Below the pieces are notes generated by a model, which was given only the letters and a program-made list of their open reading frames with translations, was not told the origin of the DNA and searched no databases. Below, one piece after another: positions 3,678 through 62,379 of a stretch of DNA of 64,000 nucleotides. The DNA comes from Patescibacteria group bacterium (lineage in GTDB: Bacteria; Patescibacteriota; Patescibacteriia; JBDRGY01), in NCBI GenBank assembly GCA_043817315.1, contig JBDRGY010000002.1:1046-65045 (forward strand), in the 5' to 3' direction. The translations under genes and the position numbers were made by a program. Numbering within the stretch: position 1 is the first letter of the stretch; each line of letters starts with the position of its first letter.

Positions 3678-3773
3678 GGTTGAATCTATTTTTGTTTTCT
3701 TTGGATTAAATACCAAAATACAACGCTCTCGCTATTTAAAGCGAGTCGTCATTGGCGTTCTATATTATATCAC

Positions 3774-3805
3774 AAAAAGGGGCTTAAGTCAAAGTCCCCT
3801 TTTTA
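3774..3805 (-). terminator. Hairpin terminator between giant paralogs 2 and 3
   Basis: AAAAGGGG...CCCCTTTT hairpin directly after the stop at 3825. On the minus strand it is followed by a TATAAT-like box ahead of the 3677 start. Confidence 0.5.
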
Positions 3806-3824
3806 TCTTTTTCCCTATACTTAG

Positions 3825-6800: not shown

Positions 6801-8891
6801 GCCGGGGTCAGTGGCGTCGTATTTGAAAGTGAAGGCGGTCCAGGTTGCTACGGCTTTATTTCCGGCAACATCCTGAGTTTTAATCCTTAAATAGTAGGTG
6901 CCTGATGACGAAGGAGCAGCAGTATAATTGGCATCAGTAGAATAACTACCAGCAGTGGGATCACAACTAACTGCCCCAAAACACACCCAATAACCGTGGA
7001 CTCCAGATGGATTACCCTCTGGTCCGGCTGCATCAGCTGCTCCTGCCCATGTAAAATACGGTCCGGTGTGGTTGTACCAAGTGGCCGTAGTAATGGCATC
7101 GCCTCCGTTTTCGGAATAACCATTGATGGTGTCTGGATTGGTTGGCGGGGTAACATCAGAAGGGGTAAAAGCAATGGAATTATCTTCAAAGATTGGAGTG
7201 TTTCCTCCAGAGGGCGTTAAGGTCAACTGATACTGGACATACTGCTCTGTGTCAGTCACGCAGCTGTTGGCGCTCATATCTGAACCGCTTCCTATTGCCG
7301 TGCAAGTTGAAAAATCTGGAGCACCGAACATCACCGCGCTGTCAGAAGTGCGCACTTTGACTGCCACGGTACCTGAGCCCGAAGAATTATAAGCAAGATT
7401 GCCCCAGTCAGCTGAGAATTCAGTGTTAAAAATATTAGAGGTGAGTGTCCCTGTTGATTCATAATCTGATAGACTAAAATCATCGACGTAAACTGTTTTA
7501 CTAGCCTTCACCTGCACTCCATAAGTACGACTAGAAGCAGCCCCGGTTACAGTACCGGTTAGTTTGTACCAACCACCAGCATCGGCAGTGAAGGCTGTGG
7601 TCACAGTTGAGCCGTTGGCATAAAGCTCCACGTCAGCATCAGTTACTTCCGAGCCGTCAGTATAGGCGTAGGCTACTAAAGTATAAGAATTTGTATCTCC
7701 TACATTAACATTCTGTAAAAGTTCCACGGTATTTGTTCCAGAAACTACCTTGGCTGATCCTGCTCCATTTCTTTTGGTGTCGGTATCCAAAGTAAGGGTA
7801 CTGCCCAAGTTAAACTTGTTAGCCAAGAAGTTTTCCACCCCGTGGCGGTCTGCGGCTGAGATCACTTCGTCATAAATCATAAATTCAGCTATACGTCCGT
7901 TAAGATTCCAGGTACCATCGGCCCATTTGCCGATGGCTAGCCGCGGACTGGAAAAAGTGGCCTGGGAACCAATGGCGCTGACGGACTGCGATACACCATT
8001 AAACCAAAGAAAATGGCGGTTTCCAGTATTAGAAACTTGCTGGGAAAAAATCTGGAACCCCGAATCTATATTGGGACCATTGGCCACACCACCGTTGTAA
8101 TAGTTATAGTAGTCATCAGCGGTTCCTCCAGGAGCGTAGCGGGAGATAGACGATCCATTACTTGGACTGGCTGGATTGTAAATGAAGTATAGGTAATCGT
8201 AATTACTAGACGGCTGATTGGTGTAGTCAAACGAGGCCACTGAGATAACAGTGATATCAGTGATCGAAGCAATAGAAGTTAAGTCCACATAAAGCACTTC
8301 TCCGTTGCCAGCTGTATCAACGTCTGGCGAAAATTGGAGAACCGCTCGGCTATTCAACTCATCTGTTTCATAAGTCGGTCGGCGGCTGGCTGACGTTTGG
8401 GAAGCGTCGTTATTGCTGCTCGATTGGTCTCCCCAAACCTGGACGGTCTGTCCGTCTGTGGCCAGGGTTGAACCATTGTCATTATAGGCTTCAGCGTCTG
8501 CTCGCCCATAAAACTCTAAACCGCTGATAGTGGTCGGATCTATGCCCAGCCAGCTGTCTAGATCACTAGAATCATCAACGCCTGTATCAGAAAATTCCTC
8601 AGTGGCTGATACTGATACCTGCCCGGCCGTGGTAGTAGCATCAATATTTGATCCTGAAGCGTATTCGTCTACGGTCGAAGAGCCTACGCCACCACTCCAA
8701 TCAGTCTGCGTCCAGGGTGAATCGGCTGCTCGGGTAAACGGCCATTGGGTAACCAGTACAACTATAACCAATACTAAAAATACCGAGATTATCATTTGGA
8801 TTCGGTACTTAACCCGGTAAATTCTAAGCCTAGCTAAAGCCTCTTTTAGCTGCTTCCTTAAATCAGAGGTTTTACTCTGTCTGGATTTCAT
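3825..8891 (-). CDS. Giant surface protein, paralog 2 (1688 aa). It has a basic N-terminal tail, a single TM anchor, a LamG-like lectin domain, many FN3-like / purple-acid-phosphatase-N-like beta-sandwich modules, and a conserved C-terminal motif.
   Basis: Single 5-kb ORF with TM segment RIQMIISVFLVLVIVVLVTQW. LamG-like signature ...LNGRIAEFMIYDEVISAADRHGVENFLANKF. Internally duplicated ~100-aa modules (NTTNSFTFSWLEP...GYYYAINA...TQQGANVFYVVAVDTAGN and NTTNSFKFTWGEP...GYYYSINQ...TQQGTNTFYIVAIDDAGN). Repeated T.EW.T......VEYG.T..YG....H.V.L.GL...T.Y.FR units. Confidence 0.9.
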   Translation of the reverse strand: MKSRQSKTSDLRKQLKEALARLRIYRVKYRIQMIISVFLVLVIVVLVTQWPFTRAADSPWTQTDWSGGVGSSTVDEYASGSNIDATTTAGQVSVSATEEFSDTGVDDSSDLDSWLGIDPTTISGLEFYGRADAEAYNDNGSTLATDGQTVQVWGDQSSSNNDASQTSASRRPTYETDELNSRAVLQFSPDVDTAGNGEVLYVDLTSIASITDITVISVASFDYTNQPSSNYDYLYFIYNPASPSNGSSISRYAPGGTADDYYNYYNGGVANGPNIDSGFQIFSQQVSNTGNRHFLWFNGVSQSVSAIGSQATFSSPRLAIGKWADGTWNLNGRIAEFMIYDEVISAADRHGVENFLANKFNLGSTLTLDTDTKRNGAGSAKVVSGTNTVELLQNVNVGDTNSYTLVAYAYTDGSEVTDADVELYANGSTVTTAFTADAGGWYKLTGTVTGAASSRTYGVQVKASKTVYVDDFSLSDYESTGTLTSNIFNTEFSADWGNLAYNSSGSGTVAVKVRTSDSAVMFGAPDFSTCTAIGSGSDMSANSCVTDTEQYVQYQLTLTPSGGNTPIFEDNSIAFTPSDVTPPTNPDTINGYSENGGDAITTATWYNHTGPYFTWAGAADAAGPEGNPSGVHGYWVCFGAVSCDPTAGSYSTDANYTAAPSSSGTYYLRIKTQDVAGNKAVATWTAFTFKYDATDPGNPSGILPNPAGFSSEDSYSFTWNAGSDAHSGIGEYCYKTGAPAATDTCIAETTVSGITSYQEGTNVFYVRSKDVAGNLLDYYTSVNYYYSANAPSEPQNLQVDPASNTTNSFTFSWLEPASHDTTIAGYYYAINAIPNANNVTYTTQTTIGPDAFATQQGANVFYVVAVDTAGNKNWSSYSSIEFTASTSAPGIPTGIIVTDSSNREQGTFRLTVTWEEPDQVGGGIDHYKVERSDDGGDTYTEISQVTGTGYLDTGLTQNAWYCYQIKATDNAEAASAASSEVCEQARGRYYEAPSLVGNPGAETRIQSATIEWLTDRECSSFVEYGETTAYGSEAGQDDHLSSHSVNLIGLEPDTTYHYRVKFTDEDDNTGYSGDYTFETADAPSAPTSLAVAPTSNTTNSFKFTWGEPVDEGVTIEGYYYSINQEPSVTNSSYTAQTTLGPGPYATQQGTNTFYIVAIDDAGNINYDNHASIEFEANTAAPGAPTNMLIIDSSDRYTEKYMLTLTWDPPTTISSGEGEEVAYIIKRSTDNKTFEDISETQSIAYIDTSLSNETTYYYKVTAKDNAGAQSAASTVVSEIPEGRYRTPPTISAGPTVTPDSFTATITWETDREADSHAEYGLTEDLGEEQGTIEESDDHTVVLEGLNAETKYYYRIRSRDIDGNIALSSISSLTTLEAPRVSEVVVSDIKLYEATISWKTNKETTSLIDYGTTTDYGSVVYDTTGSSTLSHTLKLSGLSDGTTYHFRPTGLDATDNAPESGDYAFTTLTFPRVLSVSSENKAEGQTEVKWTTNVPTTSEVEYGNEDTPSKTQGNTALVTDHSVLVFGLEDATTYQFTVRGRDQFGYEAVSPEESFTTLEDTTPPIISDVRYEANTVGSGDTASVQIIVSWMTNEPTSSQLEYGEGLSSSTYTGSTDVNPELVIDHIMVIKDLEPARTYHFRVVATDKADNETLSDSYSVLTSRKRESFLQIVIDNLSDTFSWMSNMGNLF

Positions 8892-8894
8892 TTA

Positions 8895-11800
8895 TTAAAA
8901 CAAATTGCCGATGTTTCCTAACCAGGAGAAAGTCTGTTCTAGGTTGGAGATAACTATCTGCAAGAAAGATTCTCTGGCCCTGGAAGTTAACACTGAATAA
9001 TCGTCCGATTTAGTTTCGTTTCCAGCTTTATCTACAGCTATTGTTCTAAAATGGTAAGTTCGGGCCGGCTCCAGGTCGGGTATAATCATCAAGTGATCCT
9101 GCACCAGTTCCGGATTAATATCGGTCGAAGCTGAATATGAAGTTGACCCCAGCCCCTCCCCAAAATCAGCCGCGGTAGTGGTTGGCTCATCAGTTCTAAA
9201 GGAGACAATAATCTGAATTCTGGCTGCATCACCCGATCCCACTGTATTGGACTCATACTTGACGTGAGAAATGGTAGGCGGCGTAGTATCCTCTAAGGTT
9301 CTAAAGTTGTTTTCTACTGAAACGGCCTCGTAGCCGAATTGGTCGCGGCCCCGAACCACAAAATTGTAAATAGTTGCATCATTTAAGCCAAAAAGCAAGA
9401 CGGAGTGATCGGTTACCAGGGCAGTATTACCTTGAGTTTTGGACGGTTCATTTTCATTGTAGTATTCCACTTCCGAAGTAGTGGGCACATTGGTGGTCCA
9501 CCTAATCTCTGTTTGACCTTCGGCTTTGTTTTCCGAGGTAACATCAGACACTCGCGGAAAGGTTAGGGTAGTAAAGACATAATTATCCGAATTAAATTTA
9601 TTGCCGGAAGCATCTTCTGCATAAACTCTCAAATTATAGGTGGTTCCGTCTGCTAATCCTGTCAGTTTAATAGTGTGAGTAAAGCTAGTAGAGCCAGAGG
9701 TGTCAGTGTAGGTTAAACCATAATCCGTAGTAGTCCCATATTGAATCTGGGTAGTCGTTTCTTTATTAGTTTTCCAGGAAATTGTCGCTTCATACAACCT
9801 AATATCAGTAATCTCCATTTCCGATACCCGCGGCGCTTCTAGAGTAATAAATGAGGTTACGTCGGAATAGGCTTCATTTTCATCTCGGTCAATGGATTTT
9901 ACCTGGTAGTAATAAGTAGTTTCTGGATCTAAACCGGTAATCGTCACCGAATGATCATCAATTAAGTCAGAAGTTCCCTGTTCTCGATCATAATCTGTAG
10001 CCGAAGTTCCAAACAGGACAAAGGAGGAGGCCGGTCTTTCTGTTTTCCAGGTGACGGTGGCCGCAAAGGAATCAGGTACTATGGCCGGTCCAGCTGTAAT
10101 TTCCGGCGGAGTGGTATAACGACCGTCAGCTATTTCTTCAACTGGATCAGTGGCCGCTGAAGCGGATCCGGCTTTGTCAGCTGCTTTTACCTTGTAAAAA
10201 TATAATGTCTCAAATTCTAAATCAGTATCGATATAGGCAGTAGATTTGGTGGTGGCAATAACCTCATAGTCATTGTCCTCTTCAACCGCTCTATATATTG
10301 TATAGGTAATTTCTTCTTCCAGATCTTCTTCGACTGCATCTTTTACGATTCCAGAGGCACTGGGAGGATCAACCGAATTCCAACTGACCATTATTCGATA
10401 TTCTTTATCGGCCCGGTTGGAGACATCAAAGACTTCAGGATTAAGAGGAGCATCCGGCGGGATGGTATGAGCTTCAAAATCCACTACCGCATAATTGGCA
10501 TAATTTACATTACCGGCATCATCAGTGGCCACTACGTAGAAATTATTTATTCCCTGTTGAGTGGCTGCCGCAATCGGGCCTACTTCCGTATGAGTAGTAT
10601 AATAGACATTATCTTCGTTGGGCGGGGCATTAATACTGTAGTAATAACCTCCGACCGTAATTCCCTCGTCTACCGGCTCGGCCCAAGAGAAAGTGAAGCG
10701 ATTAACCATGTTTGATTCCGGATCAACTGCCAGATTGACCGGAGCGGAAGGGGCACCCAAGGTGGTTACTTCGTATATGGCTGATTCCCCGGTATTTCCA
10801 TCTTGGTCCACCCAGACTAATTTATAGTAATAAAGGGTGTCCGGTGATAGTCCAGTGACTAAAACCTCATGCTCGTCAACCAACTCTGAGGTGCCGGTTT
10901 CTTCTCCCAAACCTTCAGTCGTTCCGTATTGGACAAAAGAGGTAGCCGGATGAGGAATAACATTACCCAAACGATCTTGATCTGGCAAAGTCAGCCACTC
11001 GACCAAAACGGACCTGATGTAAGGAGTTACCGTCGGCTGACCGGACATAGTTGGGGCAAATTTAAATTTACCTTCCGGCTTAATACTTTCTACTGCCGAA
11101 TTACCGGAAGCGGCATTCCCACTGCCAACCGCTCTGATGAAATAACTATAGGTAATGGTGTTGTCCAAACTGGTATCTAAATAACCCAAAGTGGTAGTTG
11201 TAGCAATGTTGGTGTAATTATCTGGGGGATCAGCTACTGTGGATGGATTCTCACAATCTTCCTCACAACGATAAACTTTAAAGTTCTCGGCATTGGCCGT
11301 TTCATCCCAAGTCAGAGTGACTGAATATTTTTGAGTGGAACGATCAGAGGAGTCAGTCGCCTGCAAACTGGCTGGCGGATCTGGAGCAGTAGAAGTGAAG
11401 TCATAAGTTGTAGAGGTATAATTATCGTAATCAATGTTATTAATCACATCAGCTGCCACCAGATATAAAGTATTAGTCCCTTGTTGGGTAGCCGCTGAAA
11501 AACCAGGTAATAATCTGTTGTCAGTCTGATAGGCCGAGGTCCAACCACCGTCCGGACTGGGGGTAGTATTGCCGGCCGTATTGGTACCACAATTTTCGGC
11601 GCTAGGTAATTCATTGATTGTGAAACAATAACGTAAAATTTCATTAACATCACAAGGAGTCTGACCCAAACAGGTAGCCGGTAAGCTCCAGGAAAAGGAA
11701 AAAGTGTTATTGTTTGTGGCTGAAGTAGGCGTCGCCACTAAATTTTGCGGGGCTGTTGGCGGACTACCGGCATAGTAATAAGTAGTAGTGGCATAAGAAG

Positions 11801-14800
11801 AATAGTTGCCCGCCTCATCCAGGGCTCTAACATAGAAAATATTACCTCTGGTTCGATAAGCGGTAATTTCGGTTATGTGATTGTCATCAATGCAGGTATC
11901 AACAGCGCCGGGGGCCCCGGTTTTATAACAATAATACTCAACCCCGGAACCACCGCCATCAGTTGACACGTCCCAAGAAAAATCAAAGTCATTAGTTGAG
12001 GTGTAACCCGAGGGTGTGGCCGATACGTCAGATGGGTTAGAGGGATCAATAATATCTAATTTATAGGTAAAAGTATTAGTCGGATTAGTAGTGATATTAC
12101 CGTTATTATCGACAGTTTTTATTATCAAATAATAAGTATCGGAGGTGAGGGCAGAGGCCGCCTGGGTAGCTGCATTCCAGGAACCGTCATTGCCGGAGGC
12201 TGAATATAAATTAGTGCCGGAAACATAAGCCAGGTTAGTGGGATCGCTGGCATCATCAACCGGATCTTTGCCGCTGTCATTCCCAAAATAGACATAAAAT
12301 CCTGACAATCCAATTCCGCCGGCATTATCTGCGCCGGTCCATTCAAAGTAAGGTGTAGCGTCATTAACCCAAGTATCAGTCGCAATCTCTGTTCCCCCAT
12401 CTTCGGTATAGCCGGTTGCTGAAGTCGGGTTGGTTGGGGCCGTTCCGTCAGTATAATAACTCCAAGTTAGATCATCGACCGTCGGTGAATAAAGTTGGTC
12501 AGTCACAAAATAAATTCTAACTTGTCCATACTGAGCCACGGTAGAATCAATGCTGTAATAATTAGTGCTACTAATTTCCCGATTATTGGAAACCGCTGTC
12601 CAGTCCCCCCAATTGACGTCATCTTCATCATCAGCGCAGCCGGCATTAGAACAAGTTCTAGTTTCTATACTAATAGAAGTATTAGCCGGTTCGGTTACAT
12701 TGACCGTTAGTCCTCCGTAGCCATAAACCCCAGCCTCAAAATCCAGAATTTCTGAAGTCCAATAACCGTTACCCTCAAAACCGGTGCTGGAAGTGGCCAC
12801 CACGTAACGTTCCATTGAAGTGGTATATTCTCCGCGGAAACCCAAGACCACATTATTGCCGGTCATTACCAGGTCACCGTATTCGAAGAAAGAAGTTGTG
12901 TCTCGTGTACTCCAACTATCTTCCGAGATGTCATAAACGTACATTTCATTGCCATTGGGCTCATCACCGCGCGGGATTAAAATATTTCCCTGACCGTCCG
13001 GCACGCAGGCATCGCCGTAGCGCATATTACCCGGAGCCAATGACAGAGTACCGGCCACGTCCCAAGTTTGTGAACCGATATTAAATCGATAGATATCGTC
13101 TTGATTGTTACCACGCACCATATAAATATAACCATCTCCGCCGTTAGCAGCACAACCACCAGTATAAACAGTTCCGGGGATAGCCGAGGCAACTGTCTCC
13201 CAGATATCTGTATCAATTGTGTACTTATAAAATTCTGTGGTGTTGGCGCCTCGGGCCGTATAGATAGTATTGGTTCCATCAAACACCAAATCCGATCCGT
13301 AATTAGTTTCGTTAGCCGCCGTATTGGTGTTATCCAATCTAGTCCACTTATCATCATTTATATCGTAGCGCCAAAAGGTTCCTTCATTTTCCGTTAAGCC
13401 GCTTTCTCCCGGTAATAGATAGACTCCATCATATTGGTCACTGCTATGATTTATATATTGGGCTGACGCTCCCGGTCTAACCCGCATAGGTGCATTGGCT
13501 CTGCGCTTCCAAACATCATTGGCGATATCATAAGACCACCACTCATTGGAATTACCGCCCCTGGCCACATACAGCATATCGTTATCATTATCATAAGCCA
13601 CGGCTCCGTAGTAAAAACCATAGTTGGTATATGTATGAGGCAAGGTCGGAGTTTTCCAGCGATTTTCAGAAACGTCATAGGCCAGCAGGGCATAATCAAC
13701 CTGATAGCCCCGAATGGTGTACATGGTGTCATTAGAAGGAACGTAAACCAGGTTGCCAGCCCCTCCCTGGTATTGAGTAGTCGGCAAATCATCCAACCAT
13801 TCCCAGTTTTCATTGGCAATGTCATAACGCAGAAAACCGTTAGCTGCATAACCCCGCACTAGGTAAAAATAACCATCCAAATAATAGGCGGAGGCACCAT
13901 AATGGGTCCAGATGGGCACGCTTTTTTCATAAGACCAGGTGTTGGCCGAGACCCTATAGGAATAAAAATCGGTATCGCCATAACCTCTGGTGGCATACAG
14001 ACAGCCACCTTCGTCACTGCAATAATCACCATTGGGCACATATACTAAAGTACCGCCATAATAAACCAATTGGTCAAAACCGGTCAGCTGAGTCCAATCA
14101 TCAGCCGTTTCTCCTTCTCCGACATCGGTAATAATGTTGTATTTCCAGAACTCATTGGTGGCATCTCCCCTGGTGGCATAAATAGCATTGGCGCCATCAT
14201 AGGCCAGTTGACTACCATAATAGATTTGGGACCCTTCGAAATCACTCAGGTCTGTCCAGGTGCCGGCATTAACGTTGTAGCGGCGGAAAGTGGCGGTGTT
14301 GTTACCGCCGGTGGCAAAAACACAACCTGCCGAATCGGCACAATAGGTACCGGTTGGCACATAGACCATACTGGCGCCACCGTAAACCCCCGATCCGTAA
14401 TTGGCCAGTTGAGAATAAGTTTTATCGGCTACCGAGTAAGCGTAAAATTCCTGGCGGTTGTAACCGCGGAACATAAAAATGGTGTCATCGCCGTCATAGG
14501 ACAATCCCGATCCGTAGTAACCGCCGACATTATTGGCCACCCAGGGAATGGGTGCTTCGTTGGTCCAGATGCCGTTGCTGACTGAATCCAAAGTCAGGCT
14601 GGTCCCGGATTCAGCCGCCGTATTGATATTGGTCTCCAAAGTTCCGGTCGCTTGGAAATCGGCCTGGACCGTCCAGGTATTGGTACCGGCCGGAGAAATA
14701 CCGTTATAGGTATAAGTAAAGATAGTCTCTACATCATCCGTATTGCCGGCATCATCCTTGGCCGCCACCCGCAAATAATAAGTACTGCTGTTGGTCAGAT

Positions 14801-17800
14801 CGGTATTGACTTCGTAAGTGGTTCCGGTTTGAAAATAATCTTCGGAACTGGTCGGATCGTGAGAGGCGTTGGTAGTCCAGGACAAGTAATACCCGGCCAA
14901 GCCTGATTCGGCGTCCACAGCCCCGGTTAGTTCGAAGTAAGGATTAATATAATAGTAGGAATTGCCGGTGGTTAAAGCAGTTCCCTTGGTTGAATCAGCG
15001 TAACCGACCACAGTCGGGTTAGTCGGATTGACTGAATCCTTTTCGTAGTTAATCGTAAATTCAGAAACAGTTGGAGTATTATCGTCATCCGAATTTAAAA
15101 CCACTTTGACCTGAATATAACGATTAGCCGAAGAACCAATGGTGGTGCCGGAAACTTGAGTCCAGTCCTCCCAGGAAACTTGGTCATCAGAAGTCCTGGT
15201 GTAGTAGTCAATTGTACTACCCCCCGGCTCTAAATCAGTGGCCGTAAAACTGTTAAACGAGGTAGCGTAAGTCAGATCGTAAGTCGGAGAAATCCAACTG
15301 GCTGTGGGAATGTAATCATCAGAATCGGTAGTAAATTTATAAATGGAATTGGTATCAAACCCTCGGCGAATGTACATGGTATCAGTGGCATCATCATGAG
15401 CCATGCCAATGCCACGGACAAAATTATCAGGAGTATCACTGGCCCGGCTCCAACTATCTCCCGAGATGCTGTAGCGCCACATAGAGGTGCCGAAATTGCC
15501 GGTAATGGCGTAGATACTGTCATCTCCGTCATAGGCCAACACTGCGTTGTAATAGGAACCTTCCGGTAAGTCGGCCAATTCGGTGAAGTCATCGCCAACC
15601 GGATCGTATTCGTAAAATTGAGCCCGATAATAACCGGCTAGCATATACACTTTGTTGCCATCGTTGGTTATTCCTGCACCATAATAAGCGGTCACCGGTA
15701 GATCTTCTGTAGTCCAACTGCCATCATAATGATAAATATCGTCAGTATTGTTGCCTGCCTGAATATAGACGTCACCATCACCAAAACAGGTGATTCCCCC
15801 TCCTTCTTCCACCGCTCCCGGCATACTGCCAATACTGGACCAGCCTCCGGCATCATTGCTGATGTCATAACTGTAAAAATTAGTTGTGTTAATACCCCTG
15901 GTCAAATACAGTTCTCCATTGCCGTCATAACACAGCGAGCCGCCCCGGCTGATATTGGCTAAGCCGGTCGAGGTCATGGTGTTCCAGGCTCCATCGGCAA
16001 TATCATAACGATAGAAAATGGTGGTATTTCTACCCTGGGCCATAAACAAACACCCGGTGGCATCAGAACAACCGTCTTCACTGTTGGGCACAAAGGTGAT
16101 CAGATCGCTGTCGTAATCATTGCTGGCAATAGCCGGGGTGGCAATAGAGTCCCAAGCCCCGGCAGTAATGTCATAACGCAAGAATTCCGGCCGGTTGATT
16201 CCGGGCAGAGCATATATATAGCCGTCAAAGTAGAGGAGAGTACCGCCTTCATCAACCGTTAACCCCCCCGGCATATCCGGCGGATTATCAAGATCTTCCT
16301 GCCATTCCTGGTCAGCAATATCGTACATCATAAACTCGTCATTGTTGTAACCGGTCATGGCGTAGATATTTCCGTTGACAGCGTCAACCGCCATGGAACT
16401 GCCGTAGCTAATCCGGCCGCTGTTGCCCAGGGTGGTCGGTACATTGGCAAAATTGTAAGACCATTGAGCCAGGCTGATATCATAACGGAAAAACTCGCGA
16501 TTGTTGCTGCCCCGAAAAGCGTAGATACAACCGGTCTCACAATAAACCGGACTAGTGCCATAAGAAACCGCTGAATAGACCAAGGGGTGGCCGTTGCCGG
16601 TATAAATCTGATAAGGATAGGGAATTGAAGAAATGGTGTCGTTCCAAGTATCAGTGGCAATGTTGTATGACCAAAACCCGTCCCGGCTGTTACCTTGCGT
16701 GGCGTACAGTTTACCGTTATTGCCACTGACCAGATCCGAACCCAAACCCCAGATGTCCGGCGCATCGCTTAATTGGGTCCAAATATTATTGGCAATATCA
16801 TAGCGAAACAGAAAGGGCACGCCGTTGGTGTCGTCCGAACCGTCCTGCCCGTTGATGGCATAAATATAACCGTCATAATAAGCTAGCGAGCCTCCGTAAT
16901 AGAAACCGGTTGGCGCATCAATCAGTAATTTCCAGATATTTAACTCCGGATTATAACGAAAGAAGCCCGGTTGGTTGCCACCCACGATCATGTAGATGTA
17001 AGTACCATCAGTGGTTAAATCTGCTCCATAATTGGCGCCTTCGTAAGTATAGATGCCATAGCCACGCTGATTGGTGGGATAACCCGGAGTATCTGCACTC
17101 CAAGAACCAACTCCGCCACTGGCAATTTGCAGATCACCAGAGGTTGTGGTCATGTCTAGTTGGTTAGGATAATATTGCCCGGCTTGCCACTCGGTTTGGG
17201 AAGAGACTGTGTAGGTAGCTGCCGTAGCGTGTACCAACAGTTGCTGAATTGATCCGGCCACTAGGGTGCCAATAATCAAAATTACAAAAATCGAAATAGG
17301 AGAAAAGTGCCACCACTTCTTTTTTCTAAGAACAATTAAAGGTTTTATTTTACTTTTTTCTTTTTTACGACGTTGCTGGGCCGATTTGCTAATTGCCTTT
17401 TGCCAACTGGCATGTTTTTGGGAAATTCTACCCGGGATAGCTATTATTGTTTTTATAAATCCAGTAGTTAATCCAATAACCCGCCGCCATCTGGCCTGAT
17501 TTACCTTTTTGGTAGTTTGAATGTCTTTTTTAAGATATCTCTTGGCTTTCAACTGACGGGCTCTAACGACACTTTTAACTTGCTCTCGTTTTTTAACCGG
17601 TTTAACAAAAATACTGGCTGTCTTCTCAAAGCCAGAACGCATAAGCTGGGGAATTTCTAATTTATCTTTTAGATTGAAAGAGTATTTAAAACCCTTGGGA
17701 CGACTAAAAACTTTACCGGAGTAACTGTTTCCTCCAGTTTTTTTGGACGTTTTCCCCAGAAATCTACGTGTCCCCATAGATTTCAACTTGTTTTTTTGGT

Positions 17801-17813
17801 TTGTATTTTTCAC
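8895..17813 (-). CDS. Giant surface protein, paralog 1 (2972 aa). It has a ~165-aa Lys/Arg-rich cytoplasmic N-terminus, a single TM, about 24 Kelch-like propeller blades in two blocks, FN3-like modules, and the same C-terminal region as paralog 2.
   Basis: Single 8.9-kb ORF with TM WHFSPISIFVILIIGTLVAGSIQQLL. I counted ~24 recurrences of the blade motif (F/W/M)(F/Y/W)(R/S/K)Y(D/N)I....W (FFRYNPELNIWKLL, LFRYDIANNIWTQL, FWRYDINDDKWTRL and others). The C-terminal ~700 aa align with paralog 2. The stop lies 3 nt before the paralog 2 start, so the two look like an operon. Confidence 0.9.
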   Translation of the reverse strand: MKNTNQKNKLKSMGTRRFLGKTSKKTGGNSYSGKVFSRPKGFKYSFNLKDKLEIPQLMRSGFEKTASIFVKPVKKREQVKSVVRARQLKAKRYLKKDIQTTKKVNQARWRRVIGLTTGFIKTIIAIPGRISQKHASWQKAISKSAQQRRKKEKSKIKPLIVLRKKKWWHFSPISIFVILIIGTLVAGSIQQLLVHATAATYTVSSQTEWQAGQYYPNQLDMTTTSGDLQIASGGVGSWSADTPGYPTNQRGYGIYTYEGANYGADLTTDGTYIYMIVGGNQPGFFRYNPELNIWKLLIDAPTGFYYGGSLAYYDGYIYAINGQDGSDDTNGVPFLFRYDIANNIWTQLSDAPDIWGLGSDLVSGNNGKLYATQGNSRDGFWSYNIATDTWNDTISSIPYPYQIYTGNGHPLVYSAVSYGTSPVYCETGCIYAFRGSNNREFFRYDISLAQWSYNFANVPTTLGNSGRISYGSSMAVDAVNGNIYAMTGYNNDEFMMYDIADQEWQEDLDNPPDMPGGLTVDEGGTLLYFDGYIYALPGINRPEFLRYDITAGAWDSIATPAIASNDYDSDLITFVPNSEDGCSDATGCLFMAQGRNTTIFYRYDIADGAWNTMTSTGLANISRGGSLCYDGNGELYLTRGINTTNFYSYDISNDAGGWSSIGSMPGAVEEGGGITCFGDGDVYIQAGNNTDDIYHYDGSWTTEDLPVTAYYGAGITNDGNKVYMLAGYYRAQFYEYDPVGDDFTELADLPEGSYYNAVLAYDGDDSIYAITGNFGTSMWRYSISGDSWSRASDTPDNFVRGIGMAHDDATDTMYIRRGFDTNSIYKFTTDSDDYIPTASWISPTYDLTYATSFNSFTATDLEPGGSTIDYYTRTSDDQVSWEDWTQVSGTTIGSSANRYIQVKVVLNSDDDNTPTVSEFTINYEKDSVNPTNPTVVGYADSTKGTALTTGNSYYYINPYFELTGAVDAESGLAGYYLSWTTNASHDPTSSEDYFQTGTTYEVNTDLTNSSTYYLRVAAKDDAGNTDDVETIFTYTYNGISPAGTNTWTVQADFQATGTLETNINTAAESGTSLTLDSVSNGIWTNEAPIPWVANNVGGYYGSGLSYDGDDTIFMFRGYNRQEFYAYSVADKTYSQLANYGSGVYGGASMVYVPTGTYCADSAGCVFATGGNNTATFRRYNVNAGTWTDLSDFEGSQIYYGSQLAYDGANAIYATRGDATNEFWKYNIITDVGEGETADDWTQLTGFDQLVYYGGTLVYVPNGDYCSDEGGCLYATRGYGDTDFYSYRVSANTWSYEKSVPIWTHYGASAYYLDGYFYLVRGYAANGFLRYDIANENWEWLDDLPTTQYQGGAGNLVYVPSNDTMYTIRGYQVDYALLAYDVSENRWKTPTLPHTYTNYGFYYGAVAYDNDNDMLYVARGGNSNEWWSYDIANDVWKRRANAPMRVRPGASAQYINHSSDQYDGVYLLPGESGLTENEGTFWRYDINDDKWTRLDNTNTAANETNYGSDLVFDGTNTIYTARGANTTEFYKYTIDTDIWETVASAIPGTVYTGGCAANGGDGYIYMVRGNNQDDIYRFNIGSQTWDVAGTLSLAPGNMRYGDACVPDGQGNILIPRGDEPNGNEMYVYDISEDSWSTRDTTSFFEYGDLVMTGNNVVLGFRGEYTTSMERYVVATSSTGFEGNGYWTSEILDFEAGVYGYGGLTVNVTEPANTSISIETRTCSNAGCADDEDDVNWGDWTAVSNNREISSTNYYSIDSTVAQYGQVRIYFVTDQLYSPTVDDLTWSYYTDGTAPTNPTSATGYTEDGGTEIATDTWVNDATPYFEWTGADNAGGIGLSGFYVYFGNDSGKDPVDDASDPTNLAYVSGTNLYSASGNDGSWNAATQAASALTSDTYYLIIKTVDNNGNITTNPTNTFTYKLDIIDPSNPSDVSATPSGYTSTNDFDFSWDVSTDGGGSGVEYYCYKTGAPGAVDTCIDDNHITEITAYRTRGNIFYVRALDEAGNYSSYATTTYYYAGSPPTAPQNLVATPTSATNNNTFSFSWSLPATCLGQTPCDVNEILRYCFTINELPSAENCGTNTAGNTTPSPDGGWTSAYQTDNRLLPGFSAATQQGTNTLYLVAADVINNIDYDNYTSTTYDFTSTAPDPPASLQATDSSDRSTQKYSVTLTWDETANAENFKVYRCEEDCENPSTVADPPDNYTNIATTTTLGYLDTSLDNTITYSYFIRAVGSGNAASGNSAVESIKPEGKFKFAPTMSGQPTVTPYIRSVLVEWLTLPDQDRLGNVIPHPATSFVQYGTTEGLGEETGTSELVDEHEVLVTGLSPDTLYYYKLVWVDQDGNTGESAIYEVTTLGAPSAPVNLAVDPESNMVNRFTFSWAEPVDEGITVGGYYYSINAPPNEDNVYYTTHTEVGPIAAATQQGINNFYVVATDDAGNVNYANYAVVDFEAHTIPPDAPLNPEVFDVSNRADKEYRIMVSWNSVDPPSASGIVKDAVEEDLEEEITYTIYRAVEEDNDYEVIATTKSTAYIDTDLEFETLYFYKVKAADKAGSASAATDPVEEIADGRYTTPPEITAGPAIVPDSFAATVTWKTERPASSFVLFGTSATDYDREQGTSDLIDDHSVTITGLDPETTYYYQVKSIDRDENEAYSDVTSFITLEAPRVSEMEITDIRLYEATISWKTNKETTTQIQYGTTTDYGLTYTDTSGSTSFTHTIKLTGLADGTTYNLRVYAEDASGNKFNSDNYVFTTLTFPRVSDVTSENKAEGQTEIRWTTNVPTTSEVEYYNENEPSKTQGNTALVTDHSVLLFGLNDATIYNFVVRGRDQFGYEAVSVENNFRTLEDTTPPTISHVKYESNTVGSGDAARIQIIVSFRTDEPTTTAADFGEGLGSTSYSASTDINPELVQDHLMIIPDLEPARTYHFRTIAVDKAGNETKSDDYSVLTSRARESFLQIVISNLEQTFSWLGNIGNLF

Positions 17814-30421: not shown

Positions 30422-30501
30422 TATTACAGCGAATTCTTAAGGTCTTGAGCCGTATGAAAGGCCGAAATCCCGCCGATTGGCGGGGCCTCTCGGGAGACCA
30501 T

Positions 30502-30539: not shown

Positions 30540-30556
30540 CCCGCCTATCGGAGTGC

Positions 30557-30628
30557 GGGCCAGTAGCTCAGTGGTAGAGCACTGCATTCGCATTGCAGGG
30601 GTCAGGGGTTCGACTCCCCTCTGGTCCA
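30557..30628 (+). tRNA. tRNA-Ala(CGC), no encoded CCA
   Basis: GGGCCAG/CTGGTCC acceptor with G3-U70, anticodon stem CTGCA/TGCAG with loop TTCGCAT, T arm AGGGG TTCGACT CCCCT. Confidence 0.9.
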
Positions 30629-30802
30629 TTTCCGCACGGCGGGCAGGTGGCGAAAGTCGCCCCGCTTTTTGGCGGAGCACGGCACCAAATCAAAAAAATG
30701 CCTAAAATCAGCCAAATTTTGGCTTGATTGTTTTTACAAAATGTGTTAGAATTAAGTTGTCCTTAATTTAGAAAAAATCCAAATTGAAAGGGGGTGAACT
30801 AA

Positions 30803-31492
30803 ATGGATACTTTTACATCATGGGGAGACGCCCTAAATAACTCATTAGATAATATCTGGACAGGTTTCCTTGATTTTCTGCCCAAATTCGTAGGGGCAGT
30901 TTTAATCTTCGTAATTGGCTGGATCGTTTCAGTTCTGATCGGAAATTTGGTATCAAGAGTAGTCAAATACCTTTGGGTAGATCGCCTATTACAAAGAATT
31001 AAGGTTAAGGAGGCAGTAGAAAAAGCCGGTATAAAGGTTGATATTGCCAAAAGTATGGGGTTGATAGTTAAGTGGTTTTTGATCTTTGTTTTTCTAACTG
31101 CCGCTACTGATGTTGTGGGTTGGACTGAAGTTACTCTGTTTTTGCGTAAATTCGTCGGTTATCTGCCAAATGTGATTATTGCCGTCATCATCTTCACCTT
31201 GGGCTTAATGTTTGCTAATTGGGTCCAAAGTGTGGTCAAAAAGTCAATTTCCGCCTATAAATTGCTCTCTCCTGAATTAGTATCAGCCATAGCTAAGTGG
31301 TCCATCGTTGTTTTCAGTCTGCTGGCCGCCTTAATCCAGTTAAGGGTCGCTCCTTCACTATTACAAACCTTATTCACAGGTATTGTTGCCATGATCGCTA
31401 TTGCCGGAGGCCTGGCTTTTGGCTTGGGTGGCAAGGAATATGCCCGGAACCTTTTAGAAAAAGTCCAAAAAGACGTCCATCCTAAAGAATAA
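30803..31492 (+). CDS. Multi-pass membrane protein with repeated conserved TM-helix units (MscS-N-terminal-like)
   Basis: 229 aa. Repeats of the ...LPKFVGAVLIFVIGWIVS... / ...LPNVIIAVIIFTLGLMFANWV... type. RBS GGGGGTG lies upstream. Confidence 0.45.
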   Translation: MDTFTSWGDALNNSLDNIWTGFLDFLPKFVGAVLIFVIGWIVSVLIGNLVSRVVKYLWVDRLLQRIKVKEAVEKAGIKVDIAKSMGLIVKWFLIFVFLTAATDVVGWTEVTLFLRKFVGYLPNVIIAVIIFTLGLMFANWVQSVVKKSISAYKLLSPELVSAIAKWSIVVFSLLAALIQLRVAPSLLQTLFTGIVAMIAIAGGLAFGLGGKEYARNLLEKVQKDVHPKE

Positions 31493-31560
31493 AGACTAAA
31501 AACGCTTGCTAGTATTTCTCTTTTTAAGCTATAATCTTTCTAGTAAGCGTTTTTGTTTAT

Positions 31561-31690
31561 GGGCCGGTCCCTAGGTCCCGCACTGCGGGACCGGGATCCC
31601 GATCACCAAAAGTGACTTAGGGATAGTTCAGTTTCCGCCAAAGGCGGACCAGCCTCTGGCTGGGGCTATCATCTCTTTGCGATAAAAAGT
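31561..31690 (+). other. Structured GC-rich segment that contains a split copy of the first 17 nt of the downstream tRNA-Ala(GGC)
   Basis: GGGCCGG plus a 56-nt stem-closed insert (TCCCTA...TAGGGA, with inner hairpins GGTCCCGC ACT GCGGGACC and TCAC CAAAA GTGA) plus TAGTTCAGTT. Further hairpins follow: CCGCC AAA GGCGG and CCAGCC TCT GGCTGG. Confidence 0.4.
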
Positions 31691-31707
31691 ATTATATTAA
31701 TCAATTT

Positions 31708-31891
31708 GGGCCGGTAGTTCAGTTAGCTAGAATGCCTCCATGGCATGCCTGCCCGCCAGGACCCATGGGCCGTTGGCTCAGTTGGTAGAGCGTCTCCATG
31801 GCATGGAGAAGGTCACCGGTTCGAATCCGGTCCGGTCCATAGGCTCTGGCAGGCGGGGAGGAGGTCAGGGGTTCGAGTCCCCTCCGGTCTA
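31708..31891 (+). tRNA. Interrupted outer tRNA-Ala(GGC). 5' part 31708-31746, 3' part about 31857-31891, with a ~110-nt intervening sequence at the 3' side of the anticodon loop.
   Basis: The two parts have complementary acceptor strands (GGGCCGG/CCGGTCT, with G1-U72 and G3-U70) and anticodon-stem strands (CCTCC/GGAGG), plus a canonical T arm AGGGG TTCGAGT CCCCT. Joined in silico they give a 74-nt cloverleaf. The D loop AGTTAGCTA lacks the usual GG. Confidence 0.5.
31767..31839 (+). tRNA. tRNA-Ala(GGC), complete, located inside the interruption of the outer tRNA-Ala(GGC)
   Basis: GGGCCGT TG GCTC AGTTGGTA GAGC G TCTCC ATGGCAT GGAGA AGGTC ACCGG TTCGAAT CCGGT CCGGTCC A. G3-U70 is present. There is one 7-66 mismatch. 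Confidence 0.85.
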
Positions 31892-31899
31892 TTTTTTAT

Positions 31900-31928
31900 T
31901 TGACCAACCGTTAAGCATTTGTTAAGTT
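31900..31928 (+). promoter_or_regulatory. Sigma70-like promoter (TTGACC-17-TAAGTT) within a recurring TTTTTATTTGAC module
   Basis: The same module lies at 36279-36307 (TTGACT-17-TAAGCT) and 37030-37058 (TTGACG-17-TAGCAT). Confidence 0.5.
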
Positions 31929-31967
31929 TATATACTTTAAGAGTTGCTCTTTCCCCAGGGAGGGCGT

Positions 31968-32462
31968 ATGCGCGAGATGATCGTGGAGACAGTTCCGGTT
32001 GTTCCGGACCTAGGCAATATGGGTTGCCCTGATTGGTTTCACCACCACGGCCGTAAGATGCGGTTAACTGTGGCCGATACGACCAAGCAAGTAGTGGTCA
32101 TATCTGCTTCAGCGGCCACCTTGACCATCTCTGTCAAGGAAGTAGGTAGGGGCGACGAGTGGTTTGTGGCCTGGGAAGTTGTCCAGTCGCAGCTGGCGAA
32201 GACCAACGGACGCGTTGTCATGTCCTGCGATGAATTGAGTGCTGCCTTCGGCATTGCCGATCATTCTTACCGATACGGTGGTTGGGTCATCGAAAGATTC
32301 GGCGGCGACTCTGCCAATCAAGGCCAGTACCTTCGCTACCAGGATTTTCTCAACATCCCTTGTCCCGGCACCGGGCATGATGGTGATCCCAACATCTCTG
32401 TGGAGCTGGATGACGAGATTAAGGATGCCATTCGTCAACTAGTCAGAGCCCGCATGGGCTAA
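31968..32462 (+). CDS. Hypothetical protein (164 aa from the ATG), G+C-rich relative to its neighbours
   Basis: Track ORF 31944..32462. I prefer the ATG at 31968 (MREMIVETVPVV...). It has its own promoter and a hairpin terminator near 32470-32500. I recognise no motifs. Confidence 0.6.
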   Translation: MREMIVETVPVVPDLGNMGCPDWFHHHGRKMRLTVADTTKQVVVISASAATLTISVKEVGRGDEWFVAWEVVQSQLAKTNGRVVMSCDELSAAFGIADHSYRYGGWVIERFGGDSANQGQYLRYQDFLNIPCPGTGHDGDPNISVELDDEIKDAIRQLVRARMG

Positions 32463-54351: not shown

Positions 54352-54426
54352 GGCCACGTAGCCAAGTGGTAAGGCGGAGGTTTGCAAAACCTTTATTCGG
54401 CGGTTCGATCCCGCCCGTGGCCTCCA
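54352..54426 (+). tRNA. tRNA-Cys(GCA), CCA encoded
   Basis: GGCCACG/CGTGGCC acceptor, loop TTGCAAA, T arm GGCGG TTCGATC CCGCC, discriminator U73. Confidence 0.9.
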
Positions 54427-54427
54427 T

Positions 54428-54482
54428 CCTTCGACAAGCTCAGGATGAGCATTGGAGAAGGATGCCCTGAATTTATTGAAGG
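54428..54482 (+). repeat. 17-bp-arm hairpin between tRNA-Cys and the GIY-YIG start
   Basis: CCTTCGACAAGCTCAGG (54428-44) pairs with CCTGAATTTATTGAAGG (54466-82) at 15 of 17 positions, including two G-U pairs that work only in plus-strand RNA. The 3' arm ends 4 nt before the ATG and covers the only SD-like GAAGG. Confidence 0.6.
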
Positions 54483-54486
54483 GCAA

Positions 54487-54744
54487 ATGAAATATTACGT
54501 CTATATTTTAAAATGTGACGAGGAAAATTTATATACGGGATCGACTTGTGATTTGAAAAATCGGATTGAAAAGCATAAAAAAGGAGAAGGTGCTATATTT
54601 ACCAGAAACAGAAAATCGATTAAACTTGTATATAAAGAACTTTATAAAATAAGGGAGTTGGCTGAAAAAAGAGAAAAGCAGATAAAAGGGTGGTGCAGAA
54701 AAAAGAAGATAAATTTAATCAAATTTGGCCATCCTCTAGGGTAA
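54487..54744 (+). CDS. Small GIY-YIG nuclease-family protein (85 aa)
   Basis: MKYYVYILKCDEENLYTGSTCDLKNRIEKHKKG (GIY-YIG motifs YVYIL / LYTGST, R, E). The longer track ORF overlaps tRNA-Cys and is rejected. Confidence 0.85.
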   Translation: MKYYVYILKCDEENLYTGSTCDLKNRIEKHKKGEGAIFTRNRKSIKLVYKELYKIRELAEKREKQIKGWCRKKKINLIKFGHPLG

Positions 54745-55962: not shown

Positions 55963-56220
55963 TTAACGAGACGCTAGATAATTTTTTAAGTTTTTCTTAA
56001 TAAATCTTCTCCCCCAGCCACTTTTATAGTATCTTTCTCTCTGGAGGGCATCTTGCTTGCTCAGGAAAGCTTCGCAATAAATTAACTTCAGTGGTAAGTG
56101 GGGCTGGGTTGAATAAGTTGACCCTTTATTGTGTTCTTTGACTCTCTTCTTTAGATTCTTGGTGAATCCTATATATAACCTGCCATTTTTCTCACTTTGT
56201 AGAATGTACACGTAATACAT
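55963..56220 (-). CDS. Small GIY-YIG nuclease-family protein (85 aa)
   Basis: MYYVYILQSEKNGRLYIGFTKNLKKRVKEHNKG...E. Confidence 0.85.
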   Translation of the reverse strand: MYYVYILQSEKNGRLYIGFTKNLKKRVKEHNKGSTYSTQPHLPLKLIYCEAFLSKQDALQRERYYKSGWGRRFIKKNLKNYLASR

Positions 56221-61993: not shown

Positions 61994-62034
61994 TGGTGGG
62001 CACGGATGGATTCGAACCATCGACCTCGTCATTA
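61994..62034 (-). other. 3' fragment of tRNA-Ile(GAT), positions 36-76 including CCA
   Basis: Minus strand: T AA TGACG AGGTC GATGG TTCGAAT CCATC CGTGCCC A CCA, directly after the bracket motif ...CCGTACGGCGGGCAGG. Confidence 0.65.
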
Positions 62035-62074
62035 CCTGCCCGCCGTACGGATACACGTATTAATCATCTACTGC

Positions 62075-62151
62075 TGGTGGGCACGGATGGAGTTGAACCA
62101 TCGACCTCGTCATTATCAGTGACGCGCTCTAACCAACTGAGCTACGTGCCC
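62075..62151 (-). tRNA. tRNA-Ile(GAT), complete, CCA encoded
   Basis: GGGCACG TA GCTC AGTTGGTTA GAGC G CGTCA CTGATAA TGACG AGGTC GATGG TTCAACT CCATC CGTGCCC A CCA. The leader CTACTGCTGG pairs with the trailer CCAGCAGTAG, extending the acceptor helix by 10 bp. Confidence 0.9.
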
Positions 62152-62232
62152 CCCAGCAGTAGACAAAAATAAACTTCCTATTGGTTGGGTTAATGTAAAA
62201 GTTCTTTGAGGCACCGTACTCCGGCAGGCGGG

Positions 62233-62379
62233 TCAGTGACCCCGCAACTAGGTTCGTTACACTCGCCAGTGCGGGGCAGGCGCGCTTTCCTATTTGGTGC
62301 TTACAGTAAGTTGGTGCGCTCCCCGTCCGACTGTCTGGCGTCAGTCAAGCTGACGGGTAGCTAACTGAGCTACGTGCCC
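62233..62379 (-). other. tRNA-Ile-derived 5' fragments (positions 1-21 at 62379-62358; positions about 24-35 at 62245-62233) separated by a 112-nt GC-rich structured segment
   Basis: GGGCACG TA GCTC AGTTAGCTA, then nested helices (GTCAG/CTGAC; GCCAG..CGGGG.GCGC...GCGC..CCCCG..CTGGC), then GCGGGGTCACTGA (compare the inner tRNA GCGCGTCACTGA). Confidence 0.45.

Follow-up and report, generated by a model that had tools for sequence, protein, structure and literature searches.

Nested tRNA genes in Patescibacteria as probable mobile cassettes that replace resident tRNA genes

Transfer RNA (tRNA) genes are classic integration sites. Integrative elements reportedly insert in them and carry a replacement for the displaced tRNA segment, archaeal tRNA genes are said to include split genes and genes with bulge-helix-bulge introns that are mobile at non-canonical positions, and tRNAs have reportedly been engineered as scaffolds. 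In Patescibacteria, group I introns have been described in tRNA genes (Nakagawa et al. 2026, PMC13011429), and these are the only tRNA-gene insertions described for this phylum in the literature that we searched (PMC13011429). In phage T4, a cluster of tRNA genes contains the gene for SegB, a free-standing homing endonuclease of the GIY-YIG type, which drives the preferred inheritance of its region (PMC2330249). Here we analyse a stretch of 64,000 nucleotides (nt) from a Patescibacteria group bacterium (assembly GCA_043817315.1, contig JBDRGY010000002.1, positions 1,046 to 65,045; hereafter the window), in which one complete tRNA-Ala(GGC) gene lies inside the anticodon-loop-coding part of another tRNA-Ala(GGC) gene.

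We read the insert as a mobile cassette, non-autonomous and replacing the resident tRNA, and the outer halves as a decaying relic, and give this reading a probability of about 0.8. The nested locus, noticed in a first-pass annotation from the letters alone, is real; the window has two more elements like it, and all three belong to a large family. The cassettes apparently constitute a previously undescribed, widespread family replacing same-anticodon tRNA genes in the ultra-small Patescibacteria; the literature searched, with incomplete coverage, contained no account of one tRNA gene nested in another or of the end motif presented below.

The nested tRNA-Ala(GGC) locus

Every sequence statement of the first-pass annotation on positions 31708–31891 held base for base. 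It had read 31708–31746 and 31857–31891 as the two parts of one outer tRNA. Once joined, these parts give a 74-nt molecule that ARAGORN calls tRNA-Ala(GGC), with 21 of 21 stem pairs in the cloverleaf count. The complete tRNA-Ala(GGC) that it saw between them, at 31767–31839, is also called by ARAGORN and matches the Rfam family RF00005 at 59 bits (E = 2.6e-12; gathering score 29), with 20 of 21 stem pairs and a U7·C66 mismatch. The insert comprises 110 nt, of which 73 are tRNA, and has the exact ends 5'-CCTGCCCGCC...GGCAGGCGGG-3'. Its boundary has a 1-nt G ambiguity, 31748–31857 against the 31747–31856 of the first pass, and we place it at 31748–31857 because the comparison described below shows the 10-nt end pair (E1 and E2) as the meaningful unit. 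The 7-base-pair (bp) helix GCCTGCC/GGCAGGC, proposed earlier to close the insert, does exist, but it is the pair CCTGCCCGCC/GGCAGGCGGG that constitutes the unit. Excision of the insert restores the outer tRNA-Ala(GGC) with the predicted exon-exon join CCATGGCATG|GAGGAGG.

The minimum-energy fold of 31708–31891 is a cloverleaf nested in a cloverleaf (z = -2.7; 3 of 200 shuffles were equally stable). The inner tRNA has a leader and a trailer, whose pairing was noted at first pass and runs from end to end. The first base of the insert pairs with its last, so that both junctions lie at the blunt end of one continuous rod. The E1/E2 inverted pair and the covarying leader and trailer would fold into a hairpin shaped like a rod, the tip of which is a complete tRNA-Ala(GGC).

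Known intron types were considered and rejected, in agreement with what had been noted at first pass. For a bulge-helix-bulge intron, no two 3-nt bulges 4 bp apart can be drawn in the insert, and the two junctions face each other where a continuous helix ends. Group I introns usually exceed 200 nt and have a P3–P9 ribozyme core, whereas the insert is 110 nt long with 73 nt of tRNA and has no match to a group I model: an Rfam search of 31450–31960 with E up to 10 returned the inner tRNA and no ribozyme, group I or other family. ARAGORN in its intron mode likewise reported the inner tRNA only from the nested region, and Rfam searches of 12 related loci gave tRNAs and ribosomal RNAs (rRNAs) only.

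Relatives show which gene was there first. The neighbouring membrane protein (30803–31492) is 100% identical to a protein of a metagenome-assembled 'Patescibacteria group bacterium' genome. We recovered four related loci (L001, L002, L003 and L224) whose copy of this protein is 77–80% identical to it; their genes stand in the same order as in the window, with the same promoter-like sequence ahead of the GGC tRNA; the motif TTGCTA-18-TATAAT precedes the tRNA-Ala(GGC) locus in all four. L001, L002 and L224 have at the same position a single uninterrupted tRNA-Ala(GGC) gene that resembles the outer one, has GG in its D loop and encodes CCA. Because relatives hold an uninterrupted gene at the same locus, the outer gene is the resident and the 110 bases are the insertion. 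Compared with the L002 gene, the outer copy in the window differs solely in G18 to A, C72 to T (giving G1·U72) and the loss of CCA; the L001 gene differs from it at two more positions. The joined halves could serve as a tRNA only after splicing. The missing GG of the outer D loop had already been remarked upon at first pass, and the relatives carry GG at that position. On alignment with these relatives, the cassette is seen to have inserted, without target-site duplication, into the anticodon-loop-coding part of the single resident tRNA-Ala(GGC) gene.

Both states of the site therefore exist among the five loci, as the first-pass annotation had proposed to check. The window and L003 are filled for GGC, whereas L001, L002 and L224 are empty. 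In L003, the same inner tRNA is found with the same leader and trailer, in a frame that lacks the anticodon stem and the T arm, and the element ends have decayed to CCTGCCTGCC and GGCAGGCAAA. For tRNA-Ala(CGC), the window, L001 and L002 are filled, L001 and L002 with only decayed remains of the element, whereas L003 and L224 are empty. In L001, a further element with Arg(CCT) as cargo interrupts the D loop of an older gene for the same tRNA. The GGC and CGC patterns are not both compatible with one tree of single gains, which points to repeated gain or transfer. Among the three origins suggested at first pass, the insertion of a small tRNA-carrying sequence into a resident isoacceptor gene is hence the one that the empty sites bear out, and the family extends it; the first-pass lean towards either this or an integration scar was right in its first half and finds no support in its second.

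A family of cassettes with conserved ends

A scan of species-representative genomes for the end pattern gave at least about 25 low-GC loci of the same architecture; the scan was noisy in GC-rich genomes. With the window and its relatives added, the compilation contains 27 real rows, representing 26 distinct elements since L147 was counted twice, and the tRNA-Ile(GAT) element of the window was found later. The at least about 26 elements come mostly from Patescibacteria, from about ten named candidate groups and more than 20 independent assemblies, and their true count and taxonomic range are underestimated by the genome-collection pattern. The host labels are Saccharibacteria, Paceibacterota, Moraniibacteriota, Kerfeldbacteria, Uhrbacteria, Parcubacteria, Amesbacteria, Kuenenbacteria, Berkelbacteria and Woykebacteria. 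Eight assemblies of low GC content (L117, L123, L135, L136, L140, L181, L188 and L194) are labelled 'uncultured Gammaproteobacteria', an unconfirmed label that may misstate their affiliation, and the low-GC assembly of L147 bears the label 'Ignavibacteriales', also unconfirmed.

The cargo tRNAs are Thr(CGT), Thr(GGT), Arg(TCT, TCG, CCG, CCT), Ala(CGC, GGC), Cys(GCA), Pro(CGG), Lys(CTT), Val(GAC) and Ile(GAT). Nearly all elements lie, in the same orientation, within recognisable remains of a gene with the same anticodon; L168 and L181 have no evident frame. Each of the three elements in the window also sits in a gene whose anticodon is that of the cargo.

What unites the family is its ends. Among the 26 elements oriented by their ends, the outer 10 positions are near-invariant, position 3 being T·G in 24 of 26 and position 7 being C·A in all 26, never a standard pair. 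The following positions 11–17 covary instead, with 38 double-change cells compared with 18.6 ± 3.5 expected (none of 500 shuffles was as high) and 8–16 such cells in slid controls. Six elements (the CGC and Ile elements of the window, L112, L123, L149 and L164) have reverse-complement ends, 5' CCCGCCTGCC...GGCGGGCAGG 3', with the cargo still in the direction of the host gene. As double-stranded DNA, the flipped arrangement has the same two ends with the cargo inverted; as RNA, it is a different helix. Because both orientations of the ends occur relative to the cargo, the ends would act as DNA and not as a signal bound to the transcript, which favours their recognition in DNA, whether in the duplex or in a hairpin that one strand extrudes.

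We simulated excision from CCTGCCCGCC to GGCAGGCGGG with zero shift in a table of 28 rows, namely the 27 real ones and one GC-rich chance match. ARAGORN found a same-anticodon tRNA restored in 14 of the 28, and in one row more (L123), where the cargo is Val(GAC), it called the restored tRNA Ile(GAT). The compiled elements have no target-site duplication at their insertion points and no flanking direct repeat. The insertion point differs between tRNA species and is fixed within one. Thr(CGT) elements with E1 upstream occupy the D-arm site GGTAGA|GC in six genomes, the same site is used in Lys(CTT), Arg elements lie at GGATA|GA, and others at several anticodon-loop positions, among them the Ala(CGC) site TTCGCA| common to the window and Kuenenbacteria L139. 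The left flanks vary (TAGA, GATA, TGGA, CGCA, TCTG, TCGG, CCTA, GTCT, CATG).

These ends and flanks also bear on the scar of site-specific integration that the first-pass annotation had listed among its three origins. The role of tRNA genes as integration sites, the variable gene content downstream of the locus in relatives and the extra copy of the outer 5' start at 31561 would suit such a scar, a local duplication or an assembly artefact. A scar is contradicted, however, by ends that are inverted and not direct, by the lack of a downstream partial tRNA copy or duplicated 3' segment that would bracket an island, and by a Pfam scan that found no integrase gene among the about 50 open reading frames (ORFs) of the window. 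A local duplicate is contradicted by the compensatory stem changes that separate cargo and outer gene, and local duplication as the cargo source was rejected since a cargo clusters with cargoes found in other host groups rather than with the host gene around it. Chance and an assembly artefact are contradicted by the same architecture with the same ends in more than 20 independent assemblies and twice more in the window. Scar, local duplication and artefact are barely credible as explanations.

Inner and outer genes have fared very differently. In the 27 real rows, the inner tRNAs have 20–21 of 21 stem pairs throughout. The outer genes score 21 pairs in 6 rows, 20 in 3, 19 in 2 and 17 in 1, and in the other 15 rows (14 distinct elements) they have 16 or fewer pairs or no same-anticodon fit; several carry extra hairpin insertions. 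Outer genes that range from intact to wrecked, with inner genes always intact, argue against splicing. This matters for the possibility, a form of which was raised at first pass, that the insert is a true intervening sequence. The precursor would be cut where the conserved rod begins, or RNase P and RNase Z would cut it at the embedded tRNA, after which the exons would be ligated to leave two functional tRNA-Ala(GGC) molecules. Such an intervening sequence would account for the exact boundaries and conserved ends, as a splicing signal would have, and for exact removal restoring a 21/21-pair cloverleaf here and a tRNA in about ten other cases; Patescibacteria do tolerate tRNA introns, those described being group I introns (PMC13011429). 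Its exons, however, are wrecked in about one element in two, the CGC and Ile elements of the window among them, while the cargoes stay intact, and even the GGC outer gene lacks G18, C72 and CCA. Ends in both orientations relative to the transcript would give different RNA helices, no bulge-helix-bulge and no ribozyme or group I match were found in the insert, and the Pfam scan of the about 50 window ORFs detected neither RtcB nor EndA. We therefore consider an intervening sequence very improbable. The pattern of decay indicates instead that the outer halves are not rejoined and belong to a dead, decaying gene.

The cargoes have a history separate from that of their hosts. An inner tRNA and its own outer gene are 0.64–0.94 identical, the differences being largely compensatory stem changes. 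The Thr(CGT) D-arm cargoes of Saccharibacteria L089, Paceibacterota L102 and Moraniibacteriota L110 have mutual identities of 0.82–0.85, and those of L107 and L130 an identity of 0.89, whereas a Thr(CGT) cargo and the host gene it interrupts are only 0.64–0.76 identical. Two Saccharibacteria cargoes of this type, L089 and L090, share an identity of only 0.61. This pattern of tRNA identities is the signature of horizontal spread in which the cargo lineage travels with the element; members of the family, as their sequences show, move between lineages together with their own tRNA lineage.

Elements without cargo occur as well. Cargo-less rods of 20–41 nt were found in L028, in the dead outer gene of L135 and in the viral contigs L211, L217 and L219. 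A scan of IMG/VR for the two ends gave 17 contigs, mostly chance matches in GC-rich phages, a few with cargo-less rods and none with a tRNA-bearing element, and the 5' 26-mer of the inner GGC tRNA is absent from IMG/VR.

Several related arrangements were observed alongside the family. In L147, a 36-nt unit made of the E1 end and the first 23 nt of tRNA-Lys(CTT) is tandemly duplicated, probably because the 5' parts that recur in the outer and the inner gene recombined unequally. L075 (1575–1760) and L057 (about 1150–1310) have nested tRNA-Ala genes with a different, AT-rich rod and the ends CCCCGT(T)AA...TTAACGGGG; the T loop is TCCGATT in both outer genes and in the inner gene of L075 and TCCGAAT in the inner gene of L057, and removal of these inserts does not give back a 7-nt anticodon loop. 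In eight further metagenome loci (L033, L081, L014, L037, L024, L008, L015 and L007), a tRNA-Ala(TGC) upstream of the 23S rRNA lies inside a conserved alanine-tRNA-like frame, with 5' GGGCCYGAAGTTT followed by hairpins, a closing helix AAATTTTG/CAAAATTT and a 3' stem-loop followed by CCAGGTCCACC; its decay varies by locus. These frames are possibly an older nesting event of the same general kind.

Replacement, mobilisation and the surroundings in the window

How a cassette might replace a gene can be outlined as follows. The resident promoter would drive transcription of the cargo within one long precursor, in which the leader-trailer rod would keep the fold of the cargo apart from the outer halves. 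The cargo would be freed by RNase P at its 5' end and by RNase Z or exonucleases at its 3' end, possibly after a double-strand cut of the rod, and CCA would be added to the released tRNA because the cargo encodes none. The cassette would become indispensable because it kills the only resident copy and supplies the replacement. It probably targets the loop-coding parts of tRNA genes generally; since tRNA genes in these genomes are single-copy and other insertions would be lethal, only same-anticodon insertions would survive.

We lean, with clearly less assurance than for the replacement itself, towards a new class of selfish element that spreads horizontally across much of the Patescibacteria by addictive replacement of tRNA genes and is mobilised by an enzyme recognising the asymmetric 10-bp ends, probably as DNA. 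Our confidence in any particular mechanism of mobilisation is low.

A number of observations weigh against these proposals. No enzyme that could mobilise the cassettes, be it a transposase, a recombinase or another, appeared in a Pfam scan of the about 50 window ORFs; clustering of the ORFs around 32 element-bearing loci gave no shared candidate except small GIY-YIG proteins in three, and the ORFs beside the cargo-less rods in the viral contigs L217 and L219 gave nothing relevant. No common target sequence is visible at the insertion points of the compiled elements. The invariance of the ends is partly a sampling effect because the search patterns demanded near-perfect ends, and in the elements found by synteny (the GGC element of L003 and the CGC elements of L001 and L002) the ends are decayed. 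Some ten outer genes are essentially intact, which fits recent insertion but would also fit splicing there. The reading would explain the same-anticodon restriction by selection alone, and it does not account for the variety of cargo tRNAs. Finally, the GGC locus holds more than one insertion would leave, with the extra relic at 31561–31668 and a different 3' relic in L003 and L224. The relic of the window lies directly after the promoter, folds strongly (z = -3.5) and is homologous to the 5' frame of L003 and to the sequence upstream of tRNA-Ala(TGC) in L061.

Candidate enzymes were sought among the neighbours. No Y1 (HUH) transposase occurs in the window or in the flanks of the 32 loci. Two small GIY-YIG ORFs (Pfam PF01541) stand among the tRNA genes of the window, at 54382–54744 (+) and 55963–56220 (-), one between tRNA-Cys and tRNA-Gly(GCC) and the other just upstream of tRNA-Gly(TCC). 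GIY-YIG ORFs also lie about 90–400 nt from the nested elements in L123 and L187, and another lies beside a stand-alone tRNA-Ala in L072. Their positions suggest that they are possible homing nucleases for tRNA loci.

With such nucleases, the cassettes might spread by endonuclease-driven homing without moving by themselves: a nuclease would cut the naive tRNA gene, and repair would copy the cassette-bearing allele of the homologous gene. In this scheme, the interrupted outer gene would be immune to cutting and the diverged cargo would restore function, the free-standing GIY-YIG proteins being the candidate nucleases. Homing would explain the same-anticodon restriction and the one fixed insertion site per tRNA species, and the sites are indeed fixed across host groups for Thr(CGT), Arg and Ala(CGC). 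The GIY-YIG ORFs between the window tRNA genes and near the elements of L123 and L187 are in its favour, and SegB in the tRNA gene cluster of T4 provides a precedent (PMC2330249). It leaves unexplained, however, the near-invariant asymmetric 10-bp ends on cargoes of eight amino-acid identities and the cargo-less rods. No GIY-YIG ORF adjoins any of the three window elements, and one stands beside an un-nested tRNA (L072). Repair through diverged arms of 20–50 nt would also be inefficient across host groups whose outer genes are only 65–75% identical. Homing is thus an unlikely route, though one of more weight than splicing, and we retain the mobile cassette with its own recognised ends as the preferred reading.

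The features of the three nested loci are collected in Table 1. The window contains 13 tRNA genes and a bacterial 16S rRNA gene at its end, downstream of which the nested tRNA-Ile(GAT) case is located.

Table 1. Features of the three nested tRNA loci in the 64,000-nt window
Feature	Position	Strand	Sequence or basis
Promoter-like site TTGCTA-18-TATAAT upstream of the nested GGC unit	31506..31535	+	Motif common to the locus in relatives
tRNA-Ala-like 5' relic	31561..31668	+	GGGCCGGT, 52-nt hairpin insert, TAGTTCAGTT, hairpin TCCGCCAAAGGCGGA, then AGCCTCTGGCTGGGGCTA
Outer tRNA-Ala(GGC), 5' part: acceptor strand, D arm, anticodon-stem 5' strand, anticodon loop	31708..31747	+	Sequence reading, ARAGORN join, relatives
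Element end E1, CCTGCCCGCC	31748..31757	+	Near-invariant among 26 elements
Leader AGGACCCAT, pairs with trailer; rod section covaries across the family	31758..31766	+	
Inner (cargo) tRNA-Ala(GGC), no encoded CCA, predicted functional gene	31767..31839	+	ARAGORN, Rfam
Trailer TAGGCTCT, pairs with leader	31840..31847	+	Minimum-energy fold
Element end E2, GGCAGGCGGG	31848..31857	+	Near-invariant among 26 elements
Outer tRNA-Ala(GGC), 3' part: anticodon-stem 3' strand, variable loop, T arm, acceptor 3' strand	31858..31891	+	
Outer tRNA-Ala(CGC), 5' part, ending TTCGCA in the anticodon loop	30502..30539	+	Matches the uninterrupted L003 gene
Second element, flipped ends 5' CCCGCCTATC...GGCGGGCAGG 3'	30540..30647	+	Cargo tRNA-Ala(CGC) 30557–30628
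Decayed outer tRNA-Ala(CGC), 3' part	30648..30687	+	Unrelated GC hairpin CCCCGCTTTTTGGCGG in place of the T arm; end ACGGCACCA
Outer tRNA-Ile(GAT), 5' part	62233..62379	-	GGGCACGTAGCTCAGTTAGCTA...AGCGC...GTCACTGA, broken by inserts of 37 and 76 nt
Third element, 198 nt, flipped ends 5' CCCGCCTGCC...GGCGGGCAGG 3'	62035..62232	-	Cargo tRNA-Ile(GAT) 62075–62151; z = -5.45
Outer tRNA-Ile(GAT), 3' half, intact	61994..62034	-	TAATGACG...CGTGCCCACCA; join between anticodon positions 35 and 36

One of the two inserts that break the 5' part of the outer tRNA-Ile holds an E1-like CCTGCCCCGC. Hairpins of the form CCCGCC-N3-5-GGCGGG occur around the dead tRNA frames and in the spacer from 16S to tRNA-Ile (30469–30485, 31633–31647, 30660–30678 and 63364–63385) and may be minimal or decayed cargo-less rods. 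At 60031–60200 (-), two tRNA-Phe(GAA) genes stand in tandem: the upstream copy scores 68 bits and the downstream copy is degenerate (29 bits), with the D arm replaced by the GC-rich CGGCGGGCGGGGCG, two acceptor-stem mismatches and an identical anticodon arm. By its sequence, the tandem looks like another pair of an old and a new copy.

Directly downstream of the nested GGC tRNA, a 172-amino-acid ORF (31944–32462, +) without a Pfam match is absent from this position in L002, L003 and L224, and the gene content downstream is variable among the relatives. Positions 1–17813 (-) are occupied by three very large ORFs of 1238, 1688 and 2972 amino acids with fibronectin-III and Kelch repeats, probably surface proteins and unrelated to the cassettes.

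Significance and comparison with known systems

The cassettes would represent a route, not recognised before, by which tRNA genes turn over and are transferred horizontally in highly reduced bacterial genomes: whole tRNA genes are swapped by small cassettes and the dead copies remain around them. They would explain several puzzles of annotation, namely isolated tRNA halves, degenerate hairpins that resemble tRNAs, and tRNA genes in which CCA is not encoded. They also call for caution in annotation, as tRNA finders report the inner gene only. As a selfish strategy, survival by replacing the essential gene that the insertion destroyed would parallel introns, inteins and addiction modules, and it needs no splicing. 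If a selfish class of this kind does exist, the enzyme that mobilises it probably has a recombinase or nuclease activity that is new or has gone unrecognised; the asymmetric, near-invariant ends suggest an enzyme with a short, defined DNA (or hairpin) site, which might be of practical interest. Copies that were nested and then decayed could furthermore serve as an observable model for the origin of disrupted and split tRNA genes.

Among known mobile elements, the closest in form are the miniature inverted-repeat transposable elements (MITEs), the REPINs and the hairpin derivatives of IS200/IS605. Like the cassettes, they are small (20–200 nt), lack an ORF, exist in many copies, have inverted ends that fold into hairpins, and vary in presence between relatives. 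The cassettes resemble MITEs in their terminal inverted repeats (8 of 10 positions match), their length of 100–200 nt, their lack of an ORF and their multiple copies, but not in a flanking target-site duplication, which they lack. In this last respect they resemble IS200/IS605 and repetitive extragenic palindromic (REP) elements, which likewise make no target-site duplication and whose exact removal restores the site; the fixed short target of IS200/IS605, a conserved tetranucleotide immediately 5' of the insertion, is not seen in the cassettes. Unlike MITEs and REPINs, the cassettes have a complete and predicted functional tRNA gene aboard, their ends differ at two fixed positions, and the copies with cargo occur almost only inside a tRNA gene of the same anticodon.

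The integrative elements that target tRNA genes share with the cassettes the target and the principle that tRNA function is kept by an imported tRNA sequence. They are, however, kilobases long, encode an integrase, restore only the displaced part and leave a direct repeat, whereas a cassette of 110 nt brings a whole independent tRNA nested in the old gene, which is abandoned. SegB resembles the cassettes in the selfish promotion of its own tRNA genes over resident ones, and GIY-YIG ORFs occur among the tRNA genes of the window too, but SegB is a protein-coding gene between tRNA genes.

The group I introns of Patescibacteria share with the cassettes the phylum, the kind of host gene and the anticodon loop, and standard tRNA finders miss or mis-call both. 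They are self-splicing ribozymes of more than about 200 nt, and their host tRNA stays functional, whereas the cassettes contain no ribozyme but a tRNA, and their host gene decays. The archaeal introns are, like the cassettes, short helix-closed insertions in the D arm and the anticodon loop that are gained and lost between relatives; the cassettes differ in their bacterial hosts and in junctions that lie directly opposite each other and not in two 3-nt bulges 4 bp apart. The engineered tRNA scaffolds resemble the cassettes in presenting a foreign structured RNA on a helix that replaces or extends the anticodon arm. Those scaffolds are artificial, whereas in the cassettes the inserted RNA is itself a tRNA, which is predicted to be cut out.

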